Shown piece by piece: positions 3,062 to 55,542 of a stretch of DNA of 64,000 nt; within the stretch, counting starts at the first letter, position 1; every line of letters begins with the position of its first letter. The position numbers and the translations under genes were made by a program. The stretch lies in NCBI RefSeq assembly GCF_054482595.1, contig NZ_CM137008.1. One strand, given 5' to 3'. The notes beneath the pieces were generated by a model. That model was not told where the DNA came from, searched no databases, and saw nothing but the letters and a program-made list of their open reading frames with translations.

Positions 3062-5296
3062 ATGGTTGCGGTAAGAAGTGCACATATCAATAAGGCTGGT
3101 GAATTTGATCCGGAAAAATGGATCGCAAGTCTGGGTATTACCAGCCAGAAGTCGTGTGAGTGCTTAGCCGAAACCTGGGCGTATTGTCTGCAACAGACGC
3201 AGGGGCATCCGGATGCCAGTCTGTTATTGTGGCGTGGTGTTGAGATGGTGGAGATCCTCTCGACATTAAGTATGGACATTGACACGCTGCGGGCGGCGCT
3301 GCTGTTCCCTCTGGCTGATGCCAACGTAGTCAGCGAAGATGTGCTGCGTGAGAGCGTCGGTAAGTCGGTCGTTAACCTTATTCACGGCGTGCGTGATATG
3401 GCGGCGATCCGCCAGCTGAAAGCGACGCACACTGATTCTGTTTCCTCCGAACAGGTCGATAACGTTCGCCGGATGTTATTGGCGATGGTCGATGATTTTC
3501 GCTGCGTGGTCATCAAACTGGCGGAGCGTATTGCTCATCTGCGCGAAGTAAAAGATGCGCCGGAAGATGAACGCGTACTGGCGGCAAAAGAGTGCACCAA
3601 TATCTACGCGCCGTTGGCGAACCGTCTTGGGATTGGGCAACTGAAATGGGAGCTGGAAGATTACTGCTTCCGTTATCTCCACCCGACCGAATACAAACGC
3701 ATCGCAAAACTGCTGCATGAACGCCGTCTCGACCGCGAACACTATATCGAAGAGTTTGTCGGCCATCTGCGCGCTGAGATGAAAGCTGAAGGCGTTAAAG
3801 CTGAAGTGTATGGTCGTCCGAAACACATCTACAGTATCTGGCGCAAAATGCAGAAAAAGAACCTCGCCTTCGATGAGCTGTTTGATGTGCGTGCGGTACG
3901 TATTGTCGCCGAGCGTTTACAGGATTGTTATGCCGCACTGGGGATAGTGCACACTCACTATCGCCACCTGCCGGATGAGTTTGACGATTATGTCGCTAAC
4001 CCGAAACCAAACGGTTATCAGTCTATTCATACCGTGGTTCTGGGGCCAGGTGGCAAAACCGTTGAGATCCAAATCCGCACCAAACAGATGCATGAAGATG
4101 CAGAGTTGGGTGTTGCTGCGCACTGGAAATATAAAGAGGGCGCGGCAGCTGGCGGCGCACGTTCGGGACATGAAGACCGGATTGCCTGGCTGCGTAAACT
4201 GATTGCGTGGCAGGAAGAGATGGCTGATTCCGGCGAAATGCTCGACGAAGTACGCAGCCAGGTCTTTGACGACCGGGTGTATGTCTTTACGCCGAAAGGT
4301 GATGTCGTTGATTTGCCTGCGGGATCAACGCCGCTGGACTTCGCTTACCACATCCACAGTGATGTCGGACACCGCTGCATCGGGGCAAAAATTGGCGGGC
4401 GCATTGTGCCGTTCACCTACCAGCTGCAGATGGGCGACCAGATTGAAATTATCACCCAGAAACAGCCGAACCCCAGCCGTGACTGGTTAAACCCAAACCT
4501 CGGTTACGTCACAACCAGCCGTGGGCGTTCGAAAATTCACGCCTGGTTCCGTAAACAGGACCGTGACAAAAACATTCTGGCTGGGCGGCAAATCCTTGAC
4601 GACGAGCTGGAACATCTGGGGATCAGCCTGAAAGAAGCAGAAAAACATCTGCTGCCGCGTTACAACTTTAATGATGTCGACGAGTTGCTGGCGGCGATTG
4701 GTGGCGGGGATATCCGTCTCAATCAGATGGTGAACTTCCTGCAATCGCAATTTAATAAGCCGAGTGCCGAAGAGCAGGACGCCGCCGCGCTGAAGCAACT
4801 TCAGCAAAAAAGCTACACGCCGCAAAACCGCAGTAAAGATAACGGTCGCGTGGTGGTCGAAGGTGTTGGCAACCTGATGCACCACATCGCGCGCTGCTGC
4901 CAGCCGATTCCTGGAGATGAGATTGTCGGCTTCATTACCCAGGGGCGCGGTATTTCAGTACACCGCGCCGATTGCGAACAACTGGCGGAACTGCGCTCCC
5001 ATGCGCCAGAACGCATTGTTGACGCGGTATGGGGTGAGAGCTACTCCGCCGGATATTCGCTGGTGGTCCGCGTGGTGGCTAATGATCGTAGTGGGTTGTT
5101 ACGTGATATCACGACCATTCTCGCCAACGAGAAGGTGAACGTGCTTGGCGTTGCCAGCCGTAGCGACACCAAACAGCAACTGGCGACCATCGACATGACC
5201 ATTGAGATTTACAACCTGCAAGTGCTGGGGCGCGTGCTGGGTAAACTCAACCAGGTGCCGGATGTTATCGACGCGCGTCGGTTGCACGGGAGTTAG
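3062..5296 (+). CDS. relA: GTP pyrophosphokinase RelA ((p)ppGpp synthetase I)
   Basis: 744 aa ORF starting MVAVRSAHINKAGEFDPEKW; full-length RelA. Confidence 0.95.
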   Translation: MVAVRSAHINKAGEFDPEKWIASLGITSQKSCECLAETWAYCLQQTQGHPDASLLLWRGVEMVEILSTLSMDIDTLRAALLFPLADANVVSEDVLRESVGKSVVNLIHGVRDMAAIRQLKATHTDSVSSEQVDNVRRMLLAMVDDFRCVVIKLAERIAHLREVKDAPEDERVLAAKECTNIYAPLANRLGIGQLKWELEDYCFRYLHPTEYKRIAKLLHERRLDREHYIEEFVGHLRAEMKAEGVKAEVYGRPKHIYSIWRKMQKKNLAFDELFDVRAVRIVAERLQDCYAALGIVHTHYRHLPDEFDDYVANPKPNGYQSIHTVVLGPGGKTVEIQIRTKQMHEDAELGVAAHWKYKEGAAAGGARSGHEDRIAWLRKLIAWQEEMADSGEMLDEVRSQVFDDRVYVFTPKGDVVDLPAGSTPLDFAYHIHSDVGHRCIGAKIGGRIVPFTYQLQMGDQIEIITQKQPNPSRDWLNPNLGYVTTSRGRSKIHAWFRKQDRDKNILAGRQILDDELEHLGISLKEAEKHLLPRYNFNDVDELLAAIGGGDIRLNQMVNFLQSQFNKPSAEEQDAAALKQLQQKSYTPQNRSKDNGRVVVEGVGNLMHHIARCCQPIPGDEIVGFITQGRGISVHRADCEQLAELRSHAPERIVDAVWGESYSAGYSLVVRVVANDRSGLLRDITTILANEKVNVLGVASRSDTKQQLATIDMTIEIYNLQVLGRVLGKLNQVPDVIDARRLHGS

Positions 5297-5309: not shown

Positions 5310-5352
5310 CGTATCTACAATGTAGATTGATATATACTGTATCTACATATGA
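5310..5352 (+). promoter_or_regulatory. mazEF promoter/operator region with palindromic repeats
   Basis: atctacaatgtagat palindrome and second tgtatctacatatgata copy directly upstream of mazE; matches the autoregulated mazEF operator known from K-12. Confidence 0.5.
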
Positions 5353-5373
5353 TAGCGGTTTGAGGAAAGGGTT

Positions 5374-5622
5374 ATGATCCACAGTAGCGTAAAGCGTTGG
5401 GGAAATTCACCGGCGGTGCGGATCCCGGTTACGTTAATGCAGGCGCTCAATCTGAATATTGATGATGAAGTGAAGATTGACCTGGTGGATGGCAAATTAA
5501 TTATTGAGCCAGTGCGTAAAGAGCCCGTATTTACGCTTGCTGAACTGGTCAACGACATCACGCCGGAAAACCTCCACGAGAATATCGACTGGGGAGAGCC
5601 GAAAGATAAGGAAGTCTGGTAA
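5374..5622 (+). CDS. mazE: MazE antitoxin
   Basis: 82 aa [30 protein letters not shown]; overlaps mazF start. Confidence 0.95.
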
Positions 5623-14883: not shown

Positions 14884-15339
14884 GAGTTCCCCGCGCCAGC
14901 GGGGATAAACCGGCCTGGCGATTTCTCGTCAGGCCTTGCGGTGTGAGTTCCCCGCGCCAGCGGGGATAAACCGTCAGTAAAGCGGCGCCCACTGATATCG
15001 GATTAGAGTTCCCCGCGCCAGCGGGGATAAACCGAGGGGCAGGGAGTGACGCTGGAGCAGGCGATCGAGTTCCCCGCGCCAGCGGGGATAAACCGGGAAA
15101 TTAGGCAAATGTGAACACGGCGGCCCCGAGTTCCCCGCGCCAGCGGGGATAAACCGCCAGTATTTTGTCGTGGATTGCGGGATCACCAGAGTTCCCCGCG
15201 CCAGCGGGGATAAACCGTTGAGTTTGTTCGTAACAACGCGGGTCATCTGGAGTTCCCCGCGGCAGCGGGGATAAACCGGGTACAAAAGAGGCCCCATTCT
15301 GGCAGGGCTCAAGTTCCCCGCGCCAGTGGGGATAAACCA
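14884..15339 (+). CRISPR. Type I-E CRISPR array A: 8 repeats, 7 spacers of 32 nt
   Basis: Repeat gagttccccgcgccagcggggataaaccg at 14884, 14945, 15006, 15067, 15128, 15189, 15250 (c13g variant), 15311 (degenerate terminal); exact 61-bp period. Confidence 0.97.
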
Positions 15340-15793: not shown

Positions 15794-15932
15794 ATATTCC
15801 TTGTAAAAACAGGGATAAACCGAACTAGTTAAAGTTTTTATTATGTTCCCTGCATCAGCGGGGATAAACCGGACTTGTTATCATTTTTTAAGTTGTCGAA
15901 CTTATGTTCCCCGCGTCAGCGGGGATAACCAT
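15794..15932 (+). CRISPR. Decayed CRISPR remnant (3 degenerate repeats)
   Basis: Degenerate repeats at about 15794, 15843 (atgttccctgcatcagcggggataaaccg) and 15904 (atgttccccgcgtcagcggggataaccat); spacers 20 and 32 nt. Confidence 0.7.
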
Positions 15933-31830: not shown

Positions 31831-32130
31831 CGAGCAGCATTCCTGATTTTAAACGTGAACGCCGCTGGAAGAATTATCAGGTATAGAATGGCGTCGGGTG
31901 CTTGAGGCTGTCTGGCGTTAAGCATTCGCGAGGTTCCAGATGGACAAAAGCCCCAGGCGATATTTCTATCAACCTGAGGCTCGCGTTCGAACGTAGCAAT
32001 TCGGATGTTAGTCTCTTCTTTGCAGGGAGGCAAGACATGTGTATATCACTGTAATTCGATATTTATGAGCAGCATCGAAAAATAGCCCGCTGATATCATC
32101 GATAATACTAAAAAAACAGGGAGGCTATTA

Positions 32131-34797
32131 ATGGAACCTTTTAAATATATATGCCATTACTGGGGAAAATCCTCAAAAAGCCTGACGAAAGGAAATGATA
32201 TTCATCTGTTAATTTATCATTGCCTTGATGTTGCTGCTGTTGCAGATTGCTGGTGGGATCAATCAGTCGTACTGCAAAATACTTTTTGCCGAAATGAAAT
32301 GCTATCAAAACAGAGGGTGAAGGCCTGGCTGTTATTTTTCATTGCTCTTCATGATATTGGAAAGTTTGATATACGATTCCAATATAAATCAGCAGAAAGT
32401 TGGCTGAAATTAAATCCTGCAACGCCATCACTTAATGGTCCATCAACACAAATGTGCCGTAAATTTAATCATGGTGCAGCCGGTCTGTATTGGTTTAACC
32501 AGGATTCACTTTCAGAGCAATCTCCCGGGGATTTTTTCAGTTTTTTTGATGCCGCTCCTCATCCTTATGAGTCCTGGTTTCCATGGGTAGAGGCCGTTAC
32601 AGGACATCATGGTTTTATATTACATTCCCAGGATCAAGATAAGTCGCGTTGGGAAATGCCAGCTTCTCTGGCATCTTATGCTGCGCAAGATAAACAGGCT
32701 CGTGAGGAGTGGATATCTGTACTCGAAGCATTATTTTTAACGCCAGCCGGGTTATCTATAAACGATATACCACCTGATTGTTCATCACTGTTAGCAGGTT
32801 TTTGCTCGCTTGCTGACTGGTTAGGTTCCTGGACCACAACGGATACCTTTCTTTTCAAAGAAGATGCACCTTCAGGAATACAAGCGCTAAGAACATATTT
32901 TCAGGATAGACAGCAGGATGCGTGTCGGGTACTGGCGCTGAGTGGCCTTGTATCAAATAAGCGTCGTTATGACGGTGTACATGCCTTACTGGACAATGGC
33001 TATCAACCAAGACAATTACAGGTGTTGGTCGATGCTCTTCCTACAGCTCCCGGGCTGACGGTGATTGAGGCACCTACGGGATCAGGTAAAACCGAAACAG
33101 CGCTGGCCTATGCCTGGAAACTTATTGACCAACAACTTGCGGAGAGTGTTATTTTTGCCCTCCCTACACAAGCTACTGCAAATACAATGCTCAGCAGAAT
33201 GGAAGCGAACGCGAGCCGTTTATTTACCTCCCCAAATCTTATTCTTGCTCATGGTAATTCACGTTTTAACCACCTTTTTCAATCAATAAAATCACGCGCA
33301 TTTACTGAGCAGGGGCAAGAAGAAGCGTGGGTTCAGTGTTGTCAGTGGTTGTCACAAAGCAATAAGAAAGTGTTTCTTGGGCAAATCGGCGTTTGCACTA
33401 TTGATCAGGTGTTGATATCGGTATTGCCAGTTAAACACCGCTTTATCCGTGGTTTGGGAATTGGTCGAAGTGTTTTAATTGTTGATGAAGTTCATGCTTA
33501 CGACACCTATATGAACGGCTTGCTGGAGGCAGTGCTCAAGGCTCAGGCTGATGTGGGAGGGAGTGTTATTCTTCTTTCCGCAACCCTACCAATGAAACAA
33601 AAACAGAAACTTCTGGATACTTATGGTCTGCATACAGATCCAGTGGAAAATAACTCCGCATATCCACTTATTAACTGGCGAGGTGTGAATGGTGCGCAAC
33701 GTTTTGATCTGCCAGCTCATCCAGAACAACTCCCGCCCCGCTTTTCGATTCAGCCAGAACCTATTTATTTAGCTGACATGTTACCTGACCTTACGATGTT
33801 AGAGCGAATGATCGCAGCGGCAAACGCGGGTGCACAAGTCTGCCTCATTTGCAATTTGGTTGACGTTGCACAACTATGCTTCCAACGGCTAAAGGAACTA
33901 AATGACACGCAAGTAGATATAGATTTGTTTCATGCGCGCTTTACGCTGAACGATCGTCGTGAAAAAGAGAATCGTGTCATTAGCAATTTCGGAAAAAATG
34001 GGGAGCGAAATGTTGGACGAATACTTGTCGCCACCCAGGTCGTGGAACAATCACTCGATGTAGATTTTGATTGGTTAATTACCCAGCATTGTCCCGCTGA
34101 TTTGCTTTTCCAACGATTAGGCCGTTTACATCGCCATCATCGTAAATATCGTCCCGCCGGTTTTGAGATTCCTCTGGCAACCGTTTTGCTGCCTGATGGC
34201 GAAGGTTACGGACGACATGAGCATATTTATAGCAACGTTAGAGTCATGTGGCGGACGCAGCAACATATTGAGGAACTTAATGGAGCATCCTTATTTTTCC
34301 CTGATGCCTACCGGCAATGGCTGGATAGCATTTACGATGATGCTGAAATGGATGAGCCAGAATGGGTCATCAAAGGCATGGATAAGTTTGAAAGCGCTGA
34401 GTGTGAAAAGAGGTTCAAGGCTCGCAAGGTTCTGCAGTGGGCTGAAGAATATAGTTTGCAGGATAACGATGAAACCATTCTTGCGGTAACGAGGGATGGG
34501 GAAATGAGCCTGCCATTATTGCCTTATGTACAAACGTCTTCAGGTAAACAACTGCTCGATGGCCAGGTCTACGAGGACCTAAGTCATGAACAGCAGTATG
34601 AGGCTTTAGCACTTAATCGCGTCAATGTGCCATTTACCTGGAAACGTAGTTTTTCTGAAGTAGTCGATGAAGATGGGTTACTTTGGCTGGAAGGAAGGCA
34701 GAATCAGGATGGATGGATCTGGCAGGGTAACAGTATTGTTATTACCTACACTCGGGATGAAGGGATGACCAGAGTCATCCCTGCAAATCCCAAATAA
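32131..34797 (+). CDS. cas3: Cas3 helicase-nuclease (type I-E)
   Basis: 888 aa ORF MEPFKYICHYWGKSS; HD motif region (HDIGKF), Walker A APTGSGKT, DEVH box (VLIVDEVHAYD). Confidence 0.96.
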   Translation: MEPFKYICHYWGKSSKSLTKGNDIHLLIYHCLDVAAVADCWWDQSVVLQNTFCRNEMLSKQRVKAWLLFFIALHDIGKFDIRFQYKSAESWLKLNPATPSLNGPSTQMCRKFNHGAAGLYWFNQDSLSEQSPGDFFSFFDAAPHPYESWFPWVEAVTGHHGFILHSQDQDKSRWEMPASLASYAAQDKQAREEWISVLEALFLTPAGLSINDIPPDCSSLLAGFCSLADWLGSWTTTDTFLFKEDAPSGIQALRTYFQDRQQDACRVLALSGLVSNKRRYDGVHALLDNGYQPRQLQVLVDALPTAPGLTVIEAPTGSGKTETALAYAWKLIDQQLAESVIFALPTQATANTMLSRMEANASRLFTSPNLILAHGNSRFNHLFQSIKSRAFTEQGQEEAWVQCCQWLSQSNKKVFLGQIGVCTIDQVLISVLPVKHRFIRGLGIGRSVLIVDEVHAYDTYMNGLLEAVLKAQADVGGSVILLSATLPMKQKQKLLDTYGLHTDPVENNSAYPLINWRGVNGAQRFDLPAHPEQLPPRFSIQPEPIYLADMLPDLTMLERMIAAANAGAQVCLICNLVDVAQLCFQRLKELNDTQVDIDLFHARFTLNDRREKENRVISNFGKNGERNVGRILVATQVVEQSLDVDFDWLITQHCPADLLFQRLGRLHRHHRKYRPAGFEIPLATVLLPDGEGYGRHEHIYSNVRVMWRTQQHIEELNGASLFFPDAYRQWLDSIYDDAEMDEPEWVIKGMDKFESAECEKRFKARKVLQWAEEYSLQDNDETILAVTRDGEMSLPLLPYVQTSSGKQLLDGQVYEDLSHEQQYEALALNRVNVPFTWKRSFSEVVDEDGLLWLEGRQNQDGWIWQGNSIVITYTRDEGMTRVIPANPK

Positions 34798-34840
34798 CTT
34801 CGGGAATGATTGGTATCAATGACGATAACAAGACCAATAA

Positions 34841-34869
34841 CGGTTTATCCCTACTTAAGTAGGGAAGGT
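34841..34869 (-). repeat. Orphan degenerate CRISPR repeat-like hairpin, antisense to the arrays
   Basis: Plus strand cggtttatccctacttaagtagggaaggt versus repeat reverse complement cggtttatccccgctggcgcggggaactc: 19/29 identical including first 11 nt; hairpin kept by compensatory pairs. Confidence 0.6.
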
Positions 34870-35211
34870 GCACAATGTACATCTTCTTTTAATTTCCCGG
34901 TATGAGATTTTATATTCGCAGTATGAATATTTTATGTAATAAAATTTATGGTAATTATTATAACTAAAAGTTTCTTTGATAATAAAACGAATAACTTGCA
35001 GATTTGAAATGCATGCATTATTGTCTTTAAACAATTCAACACATCTTAATATATGTATAGGTTAATTGTATTAAACCAATGAATATATTTTTGCAGTGAA
35101 TGTGATTATTGAATTAATTACGCCGTATTTTTTCTTTGTTTTTACCGATAACGGAAGTGTGCCGACGTATAGAAATGCAGGAGAAATGTCGGAGCATATG
35201 AAGGAGAACAA
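34870..35211 (+). promoter_or_regulatory. AT-rich cas3-cse1 intergenic region; Pcas promoter for Cascade operon (H-NS/LeuO-controlled in K-12)
   Basis: Visibly AT-rich block between cas3 stop and cse1 start; role assigned from K-12 literature, promoter elements not mapped here. Confidence 0.55.
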
Positions 35212-36720
35212 ATGAATTTGCTTATTGATAACTGGATCCCTGTACGCCCGCGAAACGGGGGGAAAGTCCAAATCATAAATCTGCAATCGCTATACTGCAG
35301 TAGAGATCAGTGGCGATTAAGTTTGCCCCGTGACGATATGGAACTGGCCGCTTTAGCACTGCTGGTTTGCATTGGGCAAATTATCGACCCGGCAAAAGAT
35401 GACGTTGAATTTCGACATCGCATAATGAATCCGTTCACTGAAGATGGGTTTCAACAACTCATCGCGCCGTGGATAGATATGTTCTACCTTAATCACGCAG
35501 AACATCCCTTTATGCAGACCAAAGGTGTCAAAGCAAATGATGTGACTCCAATGGAAAAACTGTTGGCAGGGGTAAGCGGCGCGACGAATTGTGCTTTTGT
35601 CAATCAACCGGGTCAGGGTGAAGCATTATGTGGTGGATGCACTGCGATTGCGTTATTCAACCAGGCGAATCAGGCACCTGGTTTTGGTGGTGGCTTTAAA
35701 AGTGGTTTACGTGGAGGAACACCTATAACCACCTTCGTACGTGGGATCGATCTTCGCTCGACGGTGTTACTCAATGTCCTCACAATACCTCGTCTTCAAA
35801 AACAATTTCCCAATGAATCACATACGGAAAACCAACCTACCTGGGTTAAGCCTGTCAAACCCAATGAATCTGTGCCAGCTTCGTCAATTGGCTTTGTCCG
35901 CGGCTTATTCTGGCAACCAGCGCATATTGAATTATGCGACCCCATTGGGATTGGAAAATGTTCTTGCTGTGGGCAGGAAAGCAATTTGCGTTATACCGGT
36001 TTTCTTAAGGAAAAATTTACCTTTACAGTTAATGGGCTATGGCCCCATCCGCATTCCCCTTGTCTGGTAACAGTCAAGAAAGGGGAGGTTGAGGAAAAAT
36101 TTCTTGCTTTCACCACCTCCGCACCATCATGGACACAAATCAGCCGAGTTGTGGTAGATAAGATTATTCAAAATGAAAATGGAAATCGCGTGGCGGCGGT
36201 TGTGAATCAATTCAGAAATATTGCGCCGCAAAGTCCTCTTGAATTGATTATGGGGGGATATCGTAATAATCAAGCATCTATTCTTGAACGGCGTCATGAT
36301 GTGTTGATGTTTAATCAGGGGTGGCAACAATACGGCAATGTGATAAACGAAATAGTGACTGTTGGTTTGGGATATAAAACAGCCTTACGCAAGGCGTTAT
36401 ATACCTTTGCAGAAGGGTTTAAAAATAAAGACTTCAAAGGGGCCGGAGTTTCTGTTCATGAGACTGCAGAAAGGCATTTCTATCGACAGAGTGAATTATT
36501 AATTCCCGATGTACTGGCGAATATTAATTTTTCCCAGGCTGATGAGGTAATAGCTGATTTACGAGACAAACTTCATCAATTGTGTGAAATGCTATTTAAT
36601 CAATCTGTAGCTCCCTATGCACATCATCCTAAATTAATAAACACATTAGCGCTTGCCCGCGCCACGCTATACAAACATTTACGGGAGTTAAAACCGCAAG
36701 GAGGGCCATCAAATGGCTGA
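35212..36720 (+). CDS. casA: Cse1 (CasA, Cas8e) Cascade large subunit
   Basis: 502 aa ORF MNLLIDNWIPVRPRNGGKVQIINLQSLY. Confidence 0.95.
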   Translation: MNLLIDNWIPVRPRNGGKVQIINLQSLYCSRDQWRLSLPRDDMELAALALLVCIGQIIDPAKDDVEFRHRIMNPFTEDGFQQLIAPWIDMFYLNHAEHPFMQTKGVKANDVTPMEKLLAGVSGATNCAFVNQPGQGEALCGGCTAIALFNQANQAPGFGGGFKSGLRGGTPITTFVRGIDLRSTVLLNVLTIPRLQKQFPNESHTENQPTWVKPVKPNESVPASSIGFVRGLFWQPAHIELCDPIGIGKCSCCGQESNLRYTGFLKEKFTFTVNGLWPHPHSPCLVTVKKGEVEEKFLAFTTSAPSWTQISRVVVDKIIQNENGNRVAAVVNQFRNIAPQSPLELIMGGYRNNQASILERRHDVLMFNQGWQQYGNVINEIVTVGLGYKTALRKALYTFAEGFKNKDFKGAGVSVHETAERHFYRQSELLIPDVLANINFSQADEVIADLRDKLHQLCEMLFNQSVAPYAHHPKLINTLALARATLYKHLRELKPQGGPSNG

Positions 36721-37195
36721 TGAAATTGATGCAATGGCTTTATATCGAGCCTGGCAACAACTGGATAATGGAGCATGTGCGCAAATTAGACGTGTTTCAG
36801 AACCTGATGAATTACGCGATATCCCTGCGTTTTATAGGCTGGTGCAACCTTTTGGTTGGGAAAACCCACGTCACCAGCAGGCTCTTTTGCGCATGGTGTT
36901 TTGCCTGAGCGCAGGAAAGAATGTCATCCGACATCAGGACAAAAAACCGGAGCAAACAACAGGTATCTCGTTGGGAAGAGCTTTAGCCAATAGTGGAAGA
37001 ATTAACGAGCGCCGTATCTTTCAATTAATTCGGGCTGACAGAACAGCCGATATGGTCCAGTTACGTCGATTACTTACTCACGCCGAACCCGTACTTGACT
37101 GGCCATTAATGGCCAGGATGTTGACCTGGTGGGGAAAGCGCGAACGCCAGCAACTTCTGGAAGATTTTGTATTGACCACAAACAAAAATGCGTAA
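36713..37195 (+). CDS. casB: Cse2 (CasB) Cascade small subunit
   Basis: 160 aa ORF MADEIDAMALYRAWQQLDNG; 8-nt overlap with casA. Confidence 0.95.
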   Translation: MADEIDAMALYRAWQQLDNGACAQIRRVSEPDELRDIPAFYRLVQPFGWENPRHQQALLRMVFCLSAGKNVIRHQDKKPEQTTGISLGRALANSGRINERRIFQLIRADRTADMVQLRRLLTHAEPVLDWPLMARMLTWWGKRERQQLLEDFVLTTNKNA

Positions 37196-37207
37196 GGAAA
37201 CCTTTCT

Positions 37208-38299
37208 ATGTCTAACTTTATCAATATTCATGTTCTGATCTCTCACAGCCCTTCATGTCTGAACCGCGACGATATGAACATGCAGAAAGACGCTATTTTC
37301 GGCGGGAAAAGACGAGTAAGAATTTCAAGTCAAAGCCTTAAACGTGCGATGCGTAAAAGTGATTATTACGCACAAAATATTGGTGAATCCAGTCTCAGAA
37401 CAATTCATCTTGCACAATTACGTGATGTTCTTCGGCAAAAACTTGGTGAACGTTTTGACCAAAAAATCATCGATAAGACATTAGCGCTGCTCTCCGGTAA
37501 ATCAGTTGATGAAGCCGAAAAGATTTCTGCCGATGCGGTTACTCCCTGGGTTGTGGGAGAAATAGCCTGGTTCTGTGAGCAGGTTGCAAAAGCAGAGGCT
37601 GATAATCTGGATGATAAAAAGCTGCTCAAAGTTCTTAAGGAAGATATTGCCGCCATACGTGTGGATTTACAGCAGGGTGTTGATATTGCGCTTAGTGGAA
37701 GAATGGCAACCAGCGGCATGATGAGTGAGTTGGGAAAAGTTGATGGTGCAATGTCCATTGCGCATGCGATCACTACTCATCAGGTTGATTCTGATATTGA
37801 CTGGTTCACCGCTGTAGATGATTTACAGGAACAAGGTTCTGCACATCTGGGAACTCAGGAATTTTCATCGGGTGTTTTTTATCGTTATGCCAACATTAAC
37901 CTCGCTCAACTTCAGGAAAATTTAGGTGGTGCCTCCAGGGAGCAGGCTCTGGAAATTGCAACCCATGTTGTTCATATGCTGGCAACAGAGGTCCCTGGAG
38001 CAAAACAGCGTACTTATGCCGCTTTTAACCCTGCGGATATGGTAATGGTTAATTTCTCCGATATGCCACTTTCTATGGCAAATGCTTTTGAAAAAGCGGT
38101 TAAAGCGAAAGATGGCTTTTTGCAACCGTCTATACAGGCGTTTAATCAATATTGGGATCGCGTTGCCAATGGATATGGTCTGAACGGAGCTGCTGCGCAA
38201 TTCAGCTTATCTGATGTAGACCCAATTACTGCTCAAGTTAAACAAATGCCTACTTTAGAACAGTTAAAATCCTGGGTTCGTAATAATGGCGAGGCGTGA
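37208..38299 (+). CDS. casC: Cas7e (CasC) Cascade backbone subunit
   Basis: 363 aa [36 protein letters not shown]. Confidence 0.95.
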
Positions 38300-38301
38300 A
38301 C

Positions 38302-38976
38302 ATGAGATCTTATTTGATCTTGCGGCTTGCTGGGCCAATGCAAGCCTGGGGGCAGCCGACCTTTGAAGGAACGCGACCTACCGGAAGATTTCCGACCCGA
38401 AGCGGGTTATTAGGGCTACTCGGGGCTTGTCTTGGGATCCAACGTGATGATACTTCTTCATTACAGGCGTTATCAGAGAGTGTGCAATTTGCAGTGCGCT
38501 GCGATGAACTCATTCTTGACGATCGTCGTGTGTCTGTAACGGGGTTGCGTGATTACCATACAGTCCTTGGAGCGCGAGAAGATTACCGTGGTTTGAAAAG
38601 TCATGAAACGATTCAAACATGGCGCGAATATTTATGTGATGCCTCCTTTACCGTCGCTCTCTGGTTAACACCCCATGCAACGATGGTTATCTCAGAACTT
38701 GAAAAAGCAGTATTAAAGCCTCGGTATACACCCTACCTGGGGCGGAGAAGTTGCCCACTAACACACCCGCTTTTTTTGGGGACATGTCAGGCATCGGATC
38801 CTCAGAAGGCGCTATTAAATTATGAGCCCGTTGGCGGCGATATATATAGTGAGGAATCAGTTACAGGGCATCATTTAAAATTTACGGCGCGCGACGAACC
38901 GATGATCACCTTACCTCGACAATTTGCTTCCCGAGAATGGTATGTGATTAAAGGAGGTATGGATGTATCTCAGTAA
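38302..38976 (+). CDS. casD: Cas5e (CasD)
   Basis: ATG at 38302 (MRSYLILRLAGPMQAWGQPTFEG), 224 aa; ORF-track start 38296 is GTG two codons upstream. Confidence 0.93.
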   Translation: MRSYLILRLAGPMQAWGQPTFEGTRPTGRFPTRSGLLGLLGACLGIQRDDTSSLQALSESVQFAVRCDELILDDRRVSVTGLRDYHTVLGAREDYRGLKSHETIQTWREYLCDASFTVALWLTPHATMVISELEKAVLKPRYTPYLGRRSCPLTHPLFLGTCQASDPQKALLNYEPVGGDIYSEESVTGHHLKFTARDEPMITLPRQFASREWYVIKGGMDVSQ

Positions 38977-39562
38977 AGTCATCATTGCCAGGGCCTGGAG
39001 CAGGGATCTTTACCAACTTCACCAGGGATTATGGCATTTATTTCCAAACAGACCGGATGCTGCTCGTGATTTTCTTTTTCATGTTGAGAAGCGAAACACA
39101 CCAGAAGGCTGTCATGTTTTATTGCAGTCAGCGCAAATGCCTGTTTCAACTGCCGTTGCGACAGTCATTAAAACTAAACAGGTTGAATTTCAACTTCAGG
39201 TTGGTGTTCCACTCTATTTTCGGCTTCGGGCAAATCCGATCAAAACTATTCTCGACAATCAAAAGCGCCTGGACAGTAAAGGGAATATTAAACGCTGTCG
39301 GGTTCCGTTAATAAAAGAAGCAGAACAAATCGCGTGGTTGCAACGTAAATTGGGCAATGCGGCGCGCGTTGAAGATGTGCATCCCATATCGGAACGGCCA
39401 CAGTATTTTTCTGGTGATGGTAAAAGTGGAAAGATCCAAACGGTTTGCTTTGAAGGTGTGCTCACCATCAACGACGCGCCAGCGTTAATAGATCTTGTAC
39501 AGCAAGGTATTGGGCCAGCTAAATCGATGGGATGTGGCTTGCTATCTTTGGCTCCACTGTGA
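38963..39562 (+). CDS. casE: Cas6e (CasE) crRNA endoribonuclease
   Basis: 199 aa ORF MYLSKVIIARAWSRDLYQLHQGLWHLF; overlaps casD 3' end. Confidence 0.95.
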   Translation: MYLSKVIIARAWSRDLYQLHQGLWHLFPNRPDAARDFLFHVEKRNTPEGCHVLLQSAQMPVSTAVATVIKTKQVEFQLQVGVPLYFRLRANPIKTILDNQKRLDSKGNIKRCRVPLIKEAEQIAWLQRKLGNAARVEDVHPISERPQYFSGDGKSGKIQTVCFEGVLTINDAPALIDLVQQGIGPAKSMGCGLLSLAPL

Positions 39563-39577
39563 TTGAGGTGTAATAAA

Positions 39578-40780
<1,203 letters not shown>

Positions 40781-40885: not shown

Positions 40886-41768
40886 GAGTTCCCCGCGCCA
40901 GCGGGGATAAACCGCATTTAATGCAAAACTAATTGCACAATAAATAGAGTTCCCCGCGCCAGCGGGGATAAACCGGCGATAAACCTCCTCATCGCTGATA
41001 TCAATAAGAGTTCCCCGCGCCAGCGGGGATAAACCGATAAAGGCTCGGCGGCGCAAAAAATGGCACGGGAGTTCCCCGCGCCAGCGGGGATAAACCGCTC
41101 TCGTTGTTGTGCCTCAGTACCGGTGCGCGGAGTTCCCCGCGCCAGCGGGGATAAACCGCACACCGGTGCGACGGGAAACGTTCAGCGGCCGAGTTCCCCG
41201 CGCCAGCGGGGATAAACCGGGAATAGTTAATTTCGGTGATGGCTGCGTAAAGAGTTCCCCGCGGCAGCGGGGATAAACCGAGTAATGCTGCGTTGAGATG
41301 ACCAGGCGGGCTGAGTTCCCCGCGGCAGCGGGGATAAACCGTTGACGCCAGCGGCGACCCGCGCCACGGGCTTGAGTTCCCCGCGCCAGCGGGGATAAAC
41401 CGTAGCCAGACGTACTCGCAATCTGTCGGCGGTCGAGTTCCCCGCGCCAGCGGGGATAAACCACCAGTTCTCCGTATTCTGTGGTTATCGTTGCTGAGTT
41501 CCCCGCGCCAGCGGGGATAAACCGGGAGTTCAGACATAGGTGGAATGATGGACTACGAGTTCCCCGCGTTAGCGGGGATAAACCGCCCGGTAGCCAGGTT
41601 TGCAACGCCTGAACCGAGAGTTCCCCGCGCCAGCAGGGATAAACCGGCAACGACGGTGAGATTTCACGCCTGACGCTGGTGTTCCCCGCGCCAGCGGGGA
41701 TAAACCGGGCGCACTGGATGCGATGATGGATATCACTGAGAATTCCCCGCCCCTGCGGTAGAACACCC
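40886..41768 (+). CRISPR. Type I-E CRISPR array B: 15 repeats, 14 spacers of 32 nt
   Basis: Repeats every 61 bp from 40886 to 41740; variants at repeats 7-8 (c13g), 10 (3' a), 12 (cc to tt), 13 (g to a), 14 (a2t); terminal repeat 41740-41768 degenerate. Confidence 0.97.
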
Positions 41769-54115: not shown

Positions 54116-55542
54116 TGGCATTTGATGATTTACGCAGCTTTTTACAGGCGCTTGATGACCACGGCCAGTTACTGAAAATCAGCGAAGAGGTGAACGCGGA
54201 ACCGGATCTGGCTGCCGCTGCCAACGCCACCGGGCGTATCGGCGATGGTGCACCGGCGCTGTGGTTTGATAATATTCGCGGTTTTACCGATGCCCGCGTG
54301 GCGATGAATACCATCGGTTCCTGGCAGAACCACGCGATTTCCCTGGGCCTGCCGCCAAACACCCCGGTTAAAAAACAGATTGATGAGTTTATCCGCCGCT
54401 GGGATAACTTCCCGATCGCCCCGGAGCGCCGCGCCAATCCAGCCTGGGCGCAGAACACCGTCGATGGTGACGAGATTAATCTGTTCGATATCCTGCCGCT
54501 GTTTCGTTTAAACGACGGTGATGGCGGTTTCTATCTCGACAAAGCGTGCGTGGTTTCCCGCGATCCGCTCGACCCGGATAACTTCGGCAAGCAGAACGTC
54601 GGCATCTACCGCATGGAAGTGAAGGGCAAGCGTAAGCTCGGCCTGCAACCGGTGCCGATGCACGATATCGCCCTGCATCTGCATAAAGCAGAAGAGCGCG
54701 GTGAAGATCTACCTATTGCGATCACGCTCGGTAACGATCCGATCATCACGCTGATGGGCGCAACGCCACTGAAATACGATCAGTCTGAGTATGAAATGGC
54801 AGGCGCGCTGCGTGAAAGCCCGTACCCGATCGCCACCGCCCCGCTGACCGGTTTTGATGTGCCGTGGGGTTCAGAAGTGATCCTCGAAGGGGTCATCGAA
54901 AGCCGTAAACGCGAAATTGAAGGGCCGTTCGGTGAGTTTACCGGACACTACTCCGGCGGGCGTAACATGACCGTGGTGCGCATCGATAAAGTCTCTTACC
55001 GCACCAGGCCGATTTTCGAATCGCTGTACCTCGGCATGCCGTGGACCGAAATCGACTACCTGATGGGGCCAGCCACCTGTGTGCCGCTGTATCAGCAACT
55101 TAAAGCCGAGTTCCCGGAAGTACAGGCGGTGAACGCCATGTACACCCACGGCCTGCTGGCGATTATCTCCACCAAAAAACGCTACGGCGGCTTTGCCCGC
55201 GCGGTGGGCCTGCGTGCGATGACCACGCCGCACGGTCTGGGCTACGTAAAGATGGTGATTATGGTCGATGAAGACGTTGACCCGTTCAACCTGCCGCAGG
55301 TGATGTGGGCGCTCTCCTCGAAAGTAAATCCGGCAGGGGATTTGGTGCAGTTGCCGAATATGTCCGTGCTGGAACTCGACCCTGGCTCAAGCCCGGCGGG
55401 GATCACCGACAAGCTGATTATCGACGCCACCACGCCTGTCGCCCCGGACAACCGTGGTCACTACAGCCAGCCGGTGGTGGATTTGCCGGAAACCAAAGCC
55501 TGGGCTGAAAAACTGACCGCTATGCTGGCCGCACGTAAATAA
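54115..55542 (+). CDS. ecdC: UbiD-family aromatic acid decarboxylase (C subunit)
   Basis: 475 aa ORF MAFDDLRSFLQALDDHGQLLKISEEVNAEPDLAAAANA; start overlaps ecdB stop. Confidence 0.85.
   Translation: MAFDDLRSFLQALDDHGQLLKISEEVNAEPDLAAAANATGRIGDGAPALWFDNIRGFTDARVAMNTIGSWQNHAISLGLPPNTPVKKQIDEFIRRWDNFPIAPERRANPAWAQNTVDGDEINLFDILPLFRLNDGDGGFYLDKACVVSRDPLDPDNFGKQNVGIYRMEVKGKRKLGLQPVPMHDIALHLHKAEERGEDLPIAITLGNDPIITLMGATPLKYDQSEYEMAGALRESPYPIATAPLTGFDVPWGSEVILEGVIESRKREIEGPFGEFTGHYSGGRNMTVVRIDKVSYRTRPIFESLYLGMPWTEIDYLMGPATCVPLYQQLKAEFPEVQAVNAMYTHGLLAIISTKKRYGGFARAVGLRAMTTPHGLGYVKMVIMVDEDVDPFNLPQVMWALSSKVNPAGDLVQLPNMSVLELDPGSSPAGITDKLIIDATTPVAPDNRGHYSQPVVDLPETKAWAEKLTAMLAARK

Follow-up and report, generated by a model that had tools for sequence, protein, structure and literature searches.

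The element considered here lies between cas3 and cse1 in a 64,000-nucleotide (nt) stretch of Escherichia coli DNA (the window; contig NZ_CM137008.1, assembly GCF_054482595.1), and the closest described systems are degenerate mini-arrays of CRISPR (short palindromic repeats that are clustered and regularly interspaced). CreA of the CreTA module, found in type I-B systems of Haloarcula and others, has two repeats in a degenerate mini-CRISPR, and its guide binds a promoter by limited complementarity proximal to the protospacer-adjacent motif (PAM). The type I-E CreR of Salmonella enterica represses PcasA with Cascade of E. coli MG1655, and this repression is relieved by excess CRISPR RNA (crRNA) or by AcrIE8 (Liu et al. 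2023, bioRxiv 10.1101/2023.03.10.532045). For E. coli type I-E, the available text of Shmakov et al. 2023 (bioRxiv, PMC10120712; in Nucleic Acids Research under the title 'Widespread CRISPR-derived RNA regulatory elements') predicts a mini-array between cas3 and cas8e, opposite to cas3, with a well-preserved proximal and a degraded distal repeat. Its target is given there as an AAG-flanked partial match that overlaps an H-NS site immediately upstream of the cas promoter, Pcas. According to the same text, the E. coli element is computational and experimental validation was made in type I-F1 only. In the window, a minus-strand 29-mer at 34841-34869 was compared with these systems. With a probability of about three in four, it is the first repeat-like unit (psiR1) of a CreR-type, crRNA-like regulatory RNA gene, psiR1-psiS-psiR2, downstream of and antisense to cas3.

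Read on the minus strand (34869 to 34841), the 29-mer is ACCTTCCCTACTTAAGTAGGGATAAACCG, and the repeat of the window arrays is GAGTTCCCCGCGCCAGCGGGGATAAACCG. The original prediction had counted 19/29 identities between the two and a complete 3' block of the repeat, and both were reproduced on recounting; the 8-nt source of the 5' handle, ATAAACCG, is intact in psiR1 (8/8). The unit is built as ACCTT-CCCTAC-TTAA-GTAGGG-ATAAACCG, i.e., a 6-bp stem with a 4-nt loop. As had been described, the repeat stem CCCCGC/GCGGGG became CCCTAC/GTAGGG with both changed pairs compensated, the loop GCCA became TTAA, and the unit starts 44 nt past the end of the cas3 stop codon. The 11-mer GGGATAAACCG occurs 23 times in the window, and 22 of these copies are on the plus strand, i.e., 20 in the two arrays and two in remnant repeats near 15.8 kb. 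The single minus-strand copy is psiR1, and the arrays are on the plus strand. The earlier chance estimate for the 11-mer was correct (0.02 copies expected from shuffles). The bare identity of 19/29 is not exceptional, because two unrelated plus-strand sites (994-1022 and 54336-54364) reach the same value. The significance of psiR1 is in the contiguous handle and the in-register hairpin, not in the identity count. In the window, the pattern TTCCC-N10-GGGAT was confined to repeats, either true or remnant, and to two sites of the minus strand, 34866-34847 and 34806-34787, where 0.14 sites are expected from shuffles.

The label "orphan", which the 29-mer had been given, was wrong, because the second of these sites stands exactly 60 nt downstream on the same strand and completes a mini-array. 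This second unit, psiR2 (34781-34809, minus strand), reads TCATT-CCCGAA-GTTA-TTTGGG-ATTTGCAG (full sequence TCATTCCCGAAGTTATTTGGGATTTGCAG). It is strongly degenerate, with 14/29 identity to the repeat, and matches the 5' handle at only 4/8 positions, compared with 8/8 in psiR1. The hairpin CCCGAA-GTTA-TTTGGG has the same geometry of a 6-bp stem and a 4-nt loop, includes a G.U pair that is valid only in minus-strand RNA, and carries the complement of the cas3 stop codon (34795-34797) in its loop. The layout is therefore psiR1, a 31-nt spacer-like psiS and psiR2, i.e., a degenerate two-repeat mini-CRISPR antisense to the end of cas3. The psiR1-psiR2 period is 60 nt on the minus strand, compared with 61 nt in the arrays. 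The locus has the features of a regulatory mini-array: two repeat-like units around one spacer-like sequence at array-like spacing, a 5' handle in the proximal unit and hairpin features in the distal one, and a position beside the effector-operon promoter in the cas-locus intergenic region, the 414-bp cas3-cse1 spacer. Salmonella CreR is alike, i.e., a degenerate mini-CRISPR in the cas3-casA spacer with a 5' handle in psiR1 and 3'-handle features in psiR2. The 141-nt minus-strand RNA of the region folded better than 200/200 shuffles (z = -4.1).

A third strong hairpin, GGGATGAC-TCTG-GTCATCCC (34761-34780, minus strand), was found in the 3' end of cas3 and closely follows psiR2 on the antisense RNA. 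Atlantibacter L085 and the locus L090 share this palindrome, and it encodes the Cas3 motif GMT(R/K)VIP there. The antisense RNA may have its 3' end at this hairpin, which could also be a mere product of coding constraint.

The spacer-like guide psiS (34810-34840, minus strand) is the 31-nt sequence TTATTGGTCTTGTTATCGTCATTGATACCAA, which starts with TTATTGGTCTTGTTATCGTC. Its own DNA is flanked by CCG, which is not a PAM, as in a normal array. A seed-plus-PAM search with the sequence flanking the 29-mer, as proposed along with the original prediction, found one AAG-flanked target at 34994-34964 on the minus strand (TTATTcGTtTTaTTATC). It is the single site of the 64-kb window with the full psiS seed and an AAG PAM, and it lies in the cas3-cse1 spacer, 218 bp upstream of cse1. 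The match is PAM-proximal and covers 14 of the first 17 positions (1-5, 7-8, 10-11, and 13-17), with mismatches at 6, 9, and 12. In type I-E Cascade, guide positions 6 and 12 are flipped out and unpaired, and two of the three mismatches are at these positions. None of 20,000 psiS shuffles scored as well at AAG-flanked sites of this spacer. A partial PAM-proximal match to a cognate-PAM site by the cas promoter, another feature of regulatory mini-arrays, is therefore present. The psiS of Salmonella CreR is likewise partly complementary to an AAG-flanked site at PcasA, but it starts with TAG and shows 15 consecutive matches. In Salmonella, the element lies within 206 bp of casA and its target ~140 bp upstream of that gene, whereas the E. 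coli array abuts cas3.

The AAG PAM of the predicted target (34995-34997, minus strand) has a complement, CTT, that overlaps the plus-strand -35-like hexamer TTGCAG. A candidate Pcas core promoter was assigned at 34996-35024 (plus strand), i.e., -35 TTGCAG (34996-35001), a 17-nt spacer and -10 TATTGT (35019-35024), on the basis of the sequence and of the analogy with two related loci (L090 and L005) described below. The position of the target relative to the mapped Pcas was taken solely from the available text of Shmakov et al. and from consensus scans. The target body covers a promoter-like site of the minus strand at 34979-35008, i.e., -35 TTCAAA (35008-35003), an 18-nt spacer and -10 TATTAT (34984-34979). 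The start predicted from it, near 34972, would give a transcript of ~190 nt through psiR2. In E. coli K-12, a divergent H-NS-repressed promoter, anti-Pcas, is described in the cas3-casA spacer, and its RNA is reported as structured, 150-200 nt long, overlapping the cas3 transcript and without an explained role (Pul et al. 2010, as cited in PMC7074321 and PMC10011333). As far as these citing texts describe it, the anti-Pcas RNA is similar in length to the predicted precursor spanning psiR1-psiS-psiR2. The minus-strand promoter is probably the published anti-Pcas, and the anti-Pcas RNA is probably the precursor of the mini-array. CreA, too, lies between divergent promoters, and the effector cas genes are transcribed from one of them. 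CreA differs in that it also represses an adjacent toxin gene and makes Cascade addictive; no conserved toxin open reading frame (ORF) was evident in the E. coli spacer, where the differences of the ORF at 35096-35215 are mostly non-synonymous in strain JNE151685.

The following mechanism is proposed. The minus-strand promoter in the cas3-cse1 spacer would make an RNA of ~190 nt through both hairpins, and Cas6e would cut at the 3' base of each. The cleavage position of Cas6e in type I-E repeats is known, and it was used as the basis of the prediction. If Cas6e cuts after G21 of each unit, the mature RNA would be 60 nt long (34789-34848, minus strand) and would comprise the perfect 8-nt ATAAACCG 5' handle, the 31-nt guide and a 21-nt hairpin 3' handle. 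This RNA would be loaded by Cascade. The guide would pair only by its PAM-proximal ~17 nt at the AAG-flanked site 34997-34964, where the PAM overlaps the predicted -35 region of the cse1 promoter and the target body covers the putative antisense promoter. Such partial pairing would allow binding without Cas3-licensed cleavage, and Cascade would in this way repress its own operon and probably the promoter of the guide itself. Cas production would thereby be tied to the amount of Cascade that is free of ordinary crRNAs or anti-CRISPRs. The anatomy of the locus, its conservation, the covariation of the hairpins and the co-evolution of guide and target were observed in the present analysis, and the transcription start, Cas6e processing, Cascade loading and repression are steps that we infer.

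Conservation within E. coli was examined in nine K-12-type sequences, i.e., eight E. coli genomes, the window included, and an E. coli-like contig of a metagenome-assembled genome (MAG). psiR1 was invariant in all nine. In JNE151685, the most divergent sequence found, psiR1 stands with its flank as an unchanged block, against 88.6% identity elsewhere in the spacer. One and the same psiS, with point changes only, was present in 9/9. In JNE151685 and AHM8C212RI, seed position 7 is A instead of G in psiS and in the target alike, i.e., guide and target have changed together. Position 9 also matches in these two strains, and the mismatches in the first 16 nt are 6 and 12 only. The changes in the two strains may be a single evolutionary event. 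On a wider scale, the spacer region was 95-100% identical in ~1,130 of 5,426 complete E. coli genomes (~21%). The O157-type E. coli loci have a 97-bp cas3-cse1 spacer without the mini-array. The distant-mode DNA search of E. coli genomes reached the K-12-type spacer only, and the O157-type variant was reached via cysH synteny.

For comparison with other lineages, a Cas3 scan of the genome collection gave mostly very distant Cas3 proteins (Chloroflexota and Actinomycetota), of which only that of Marinomonas was useful. Closer relatives were obtained by Cas3 protein search and contig look-ups. Among the best named matches, Cas3 identity was 72% for a Salmonella lineage, 58-59% for Atlantibacter, 54-56% for Xenorhabdus, 55% for Marinomonas, and 53-56% for Erwinia, Pantoea, and Cronobacter. 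Every locus with a long cas3-cse1 spacer and an intact handle carries a mini-array antisense against the cas3 stop. These loci, i.e., the metagenomic contigs L086 and L090, Marinomonas L005, and Xenorhabdus L096, have Cas3 proteins 55-62% identical, and the 5' handle is conserved in them. The repeat-like spacing is 60-62 nt across the mini-array loci. The psiS sequences of the four are unrelated, and each matches an AAG-flanked site of its own locus on the same strand. The psiS of L086 starts with TAGTTCTCTTTCTACTT and its target is TAGTTaTCTcTgTACTT, with 0/20,000 shuffles reaching the score. The corresponding sequences are TTGCTCGGTGTATTA and TTGCTatGTGTATTA in L090 (5/20,000), and TCTGTTTTTTAATG and TCTGTaTTTTAtTG in L005 (2/20,000). 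In L096, psiS starts with TCATTCTGTACA and has two tandem target sites (3/20,000). The targets of L086, L090, and L005 lie 186-218 nt upstream of cse1. By promoter scan, a TTGnnn -35 begins inside the complement of the PAM in L090 (TTGATC/17/TATATT) and in L005 (TTGAAT/16/TATTAT), and this overlap of the PAM complement with a -35-like TTGnnn is common to E. coli, L090, and L005.

The element is not present in every relative. Salmonella L084 has a decayed 5' handle, and no target was found there in any register; it was treated as a decayed copy, in the state to be expected after loss of function. Together with the O157-type loci, it served as a negative control. The cas3-cse1 spacer region is missing altogether from several relatives. 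K-12-type Cas3 relatives have a patchy distribution, and in O157-type E. coli the same cysH-linked site is occupied by a different cas3-casA pair; together, these observations suggest horizontal replacement of the whole module.

When 13 units, repeats and psi-repeats together, were compared, pairing was kept in 98.7% of the stem cells and 13 double-sided changes were counted, which none of 500 shuffles reached. The three basal C-G pairs of the stem are invariant or nearly so, the third being U-G once. On the plus strand, several of the G.U pairs would turn into C.A mismatches, and the minus-strand RNA is therefore the functional one. The proposal of the original prediction that selection acts on RNA structure is thus supported by stem pairs that covary across loci. 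Its suggestion of a crRNA-like RNA, Cas-regulating or CreA-like, is well supported by the hairpin covariation, the handle conservation and the co-evolving AAG-flanked target in the cse1 promoter region.

Other repeat-like elements were considered for classification. Phage solitary repeat units, Racr RNA anti-CRISPRs and viral Cracr arrays are out-of-array repeat-like hairpins that engage Cas6 or Cascade components, and a later preprint describes phage mimics of CreR-like guides. These hairpins are carried by mobile elements, and Racrs have no functional guide. The E. coli element was not assigned to a solitary repeat unit or a Racr because it is chromosomal, within the cas locus, and has two units and a co-evolving self target. 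A canonical CRISPR array was also rejected, with units of 19/29 and 14/29 and a single psiS, and a canonical spacer-acquiring mini-array was rejected because psiS is fixed across strains with point changes only.

The layout was derived independently here and is alike to that in the available text of Shmakov et al. Apart from these units, no repeat-like site is present in the K-12-type spacer, and the spacer of the other E. coli cas variant is too short to hold one; the predicted and the present element are therefore, with high likelihood, the same. The finding is real and meaningful, but its type had been described before, and very probably so had this particular element. As far as its text is available, the preprint of that study does not use the name anti-Pcas, though Pul et al. 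2010 is cited, and reports neither covariation within E. coli nor homologous arrays of Marinomonas or Xenorhabdus. That text appears to lack an explicit link with the anti-Pcas RNA, the covariation seen here within E. coli and the conservation of the module over distant lineages. The present analysis adds an independent confirmation, together with guide-target covariation in E. coli and in distant lineages, which is evidence of selection on the E. coli copy.

The reading as a CreR-type gene has a big meaning in the study of type I-E systems, because E. coli K-12 is the reference model for Cascade. If it is true, expression studies in hns-deleted or LeuO-induced strains would contain a hidden feedback loop, and the anti-Pcas RNA would acquire a function. 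Over-expression of an array or of an anti-CRISPR should then derepress Pcas.

Several points weigh against this reading. psiR2 is just 14/29 identical to the repeat and is partly constrained by the C-terminal codons of cas3, and the guide is 31 nt, not 32. A true mismatch is present at position 9 in most E. coli strains and at seed position 7 in L090. The promoter positions are consensus predictions. The units used for covariation were chosen partly by a score that rewards pairing, though their positions are syntenic. One Salmonella lineage let the element decay, so it is dispensable there. Cas6e cleavage of the diverged hairpins, Cascade loading and repression in E. coli are deduced steps. 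The locus is H-NS-silenced in laboratory K-12, and the loop would therefore be active only when derepressed.

A relic of array formation had been offered as an alternative in the original prediction. A non-functional relic, either the decaying rest of an old array or an array duplication that was aborted between cas3 and cse1, would agree with the degeneracy of both units (19/29 and 14/29), with the further decay of the Salmonella relative, which has no target, and with the relatives that lack the spacer region entirely. However, neutral decay would not preserve a perfect 8-nt handle and compensated hairpins at 55-62% Cas3 identity. A lineage-specific psiS-target match with an AAG PAM has been maintained five times over, and the paired change at position 7 within E. 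coli and the invariance of psiR1 and its flank in the divergent spacer of JNE151685 are also unexplained by decay. A relic is therefore disfavoured and is considered unlikely.

A plain antisense RNA that acts on cas3 by pairing, i.e., on its termination, stability or translation, with hairpins as stability or termination elements and Cascade uninvolved, is an improbable alternative as well. The transcript would overlap the cas3 stop codon, which psiR2 covers at 34795-34797, the region is strongly structured, and such a role has been suggested for anti-Pcas in the literature. Effects on cas3 could also coexist with a CreR function. As a full explanation, it does not account for why ATAAACCG is conserved exactly, why the units are spaced like repeats (60-62 nt) and why an AAG-flanked upstream target co-evolves, and in Xenorhabdus L096 the stop codon is not covered by psiR2, which follows it.

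It is very unlikely that the hairpins are a decoy which titrates Cas6e or Cas7 like the phage RNA anti-CRISPRs and guides nothing. The stem base (CCC/GGG) and the flanks, the parts expected to matter for Cas6e binding, are kept, and solitary repeat units are known, but a decoy has no need for a co-evolving PAM-flanked target of a spacer-like sequence, and the element is inside the chromosomal cas locus instead of on a mobile element.

A cas3 terminator or a palindromic protein-binding site, for which the position 44 nt after the cas3 stop and the perfect 18-bp palindrome TCCCTACTTAAGTAGGGA, identical when read on either strand, could be cited, is highly improbable: the GC-rich hairpin with a T-run of an intrinsic terminator was found at neither hairpin on either strand by the terminator scan, a simple operator was rejected because the stems of related loci hold strand-specific G.U pairs (C.A mismatches on the plus strand) and their loops are non-palindromic, and the asymmetric ATAAACCG block is conserved solely in the minus-strand sense. 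These alternatives are weaker than a CreR-type gene because none of them explains the conserved handle together with the co-evolving PAM-flanked target.

A broader proposal can be made tentatively. The anti-Pcas RNA would be the precursor of a native functional CreR with its target PAM on the -35 of Pcas, through which Cascade autoregulates and senses crRNA load and anti-CRISPRs. The module would be ancestral to the whole K-12-type type I-E clade and common to it and the loci of Marinomonas, Xenorhabdus, and Atlantibacter-like type, and in the relatives the guide would also gate a membrane peptide of ~40 amino acids as a type I-E CreTA-like toxin, which was lost in E. coli. Taken as a whole, this proposal is possible, though doubtful.

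A conserved ORF of ~40 codons was found between the target and cse1 in the related loci, i.e., L086 5891-6013, L090 5398-5520, L096 5457-5591, and L005 6856-6972. Its product is a single-pass membrane peptide, e.g., MAEVIEAIKEFLKVANSINYQGIALISLLIALLALVKHRH, with invariant N16, G22, and LAL motif. The peptides of L086 and L090 are 50% identical (E = 1e-10). The search against PHROG gave no significant match (best E-values 0.05-0.1), and neither a homolog nor a remnant of the peptide was detected in the E. coli spacer or in Salmonella L084. Under the guide-repressed promoter, the peptide may be a CreT-like toxin or else a small membrane protein linked to Cascade. In Xenorhabdus L096, the two tandem AAG-flanked partial psiS targets are located at 5340-5390 (minus strand), 18 nt apart.

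In the cas3-cse1 spacer of the window, a 39-codon ORF with a GTG start (MNVIIELITPYFFFVFTDNGSVPTYRNAGEMSEHMKENK) was predicted at 35096-35215 (plus strand), and its TGA overlaps the cse1 ATG (ATGA). The ORF is still open in the divergent JNE151685, where 8/9 nucleotide differences are non-synonymous, and its coding status is doubtful. Possible insertions were also seen in the corresponding spacer of other sequences. A 'Bacillota'-labelled MAG contig, which is 97% E. coli-like (L004), has an insertion-sequence-like end at 3255-3294, downstream of the target. In E. coli E1648 (H42), an IS1 transposase is annotated under the match that spans the cas3 end, the spacer and the cse1 start. Such insertions would uncouple Cascade from its promoter.

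The window is E. coli, with a cas3-cse1 spacer 100% identical to that of strain XH990 and 98.8% identical to that of K-12. Its system is K-12-type type I-E on the plus strand, with cas3 at 32131-34797. By ORFs and profile matches, the Cascade operon (35212-39562, plus strand), i.e., cse1 (35212-36720), cse2, cas7, cas5, and cas6e, is intact, and its products are the proteins that would process and carry the guide. The cas2 gene is present on the same strand, and two CRISPR arrays with a repeat period of 61 nt lie at 14884-15339 and 40886-41707 (plus strand). The cas1 gene (39563-40494) is broken by a frameshift into two plus-strand ORFs in different frames, 39563-40051 and 40048-40494, which match positions 3-143 and 154-268 of the Cas1e profile. 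Spacer acquisition is therefore probably defective in this strain, whereas Cascade, Cas6e, and Cas3 are intact.

About 450 bp past the first array, three remnant repeats with 18/29, 24/29, and 23/29 identity were found at 15794-15932 (plus strand). They are spaced by 49 and 61 nt and represent a decayed small array, which accounts for the two extra GGGATAAACCG matches. At the mini-array element, permissive Rfam searches gave noise only, and Rfam is uninformative for it because the genuine array repeats are also below the threshold of every CRISPR-DR family. In the gathering search of the whole window, the only Rfam match was the sok antitoxin RNA of a hok/sok module (RF01794, 97.5 bits) at 31896-32051 (plus strand), between cysH and cas3. 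At the corresponding place in O157:H7, a Hok/Gef gene is annotated.

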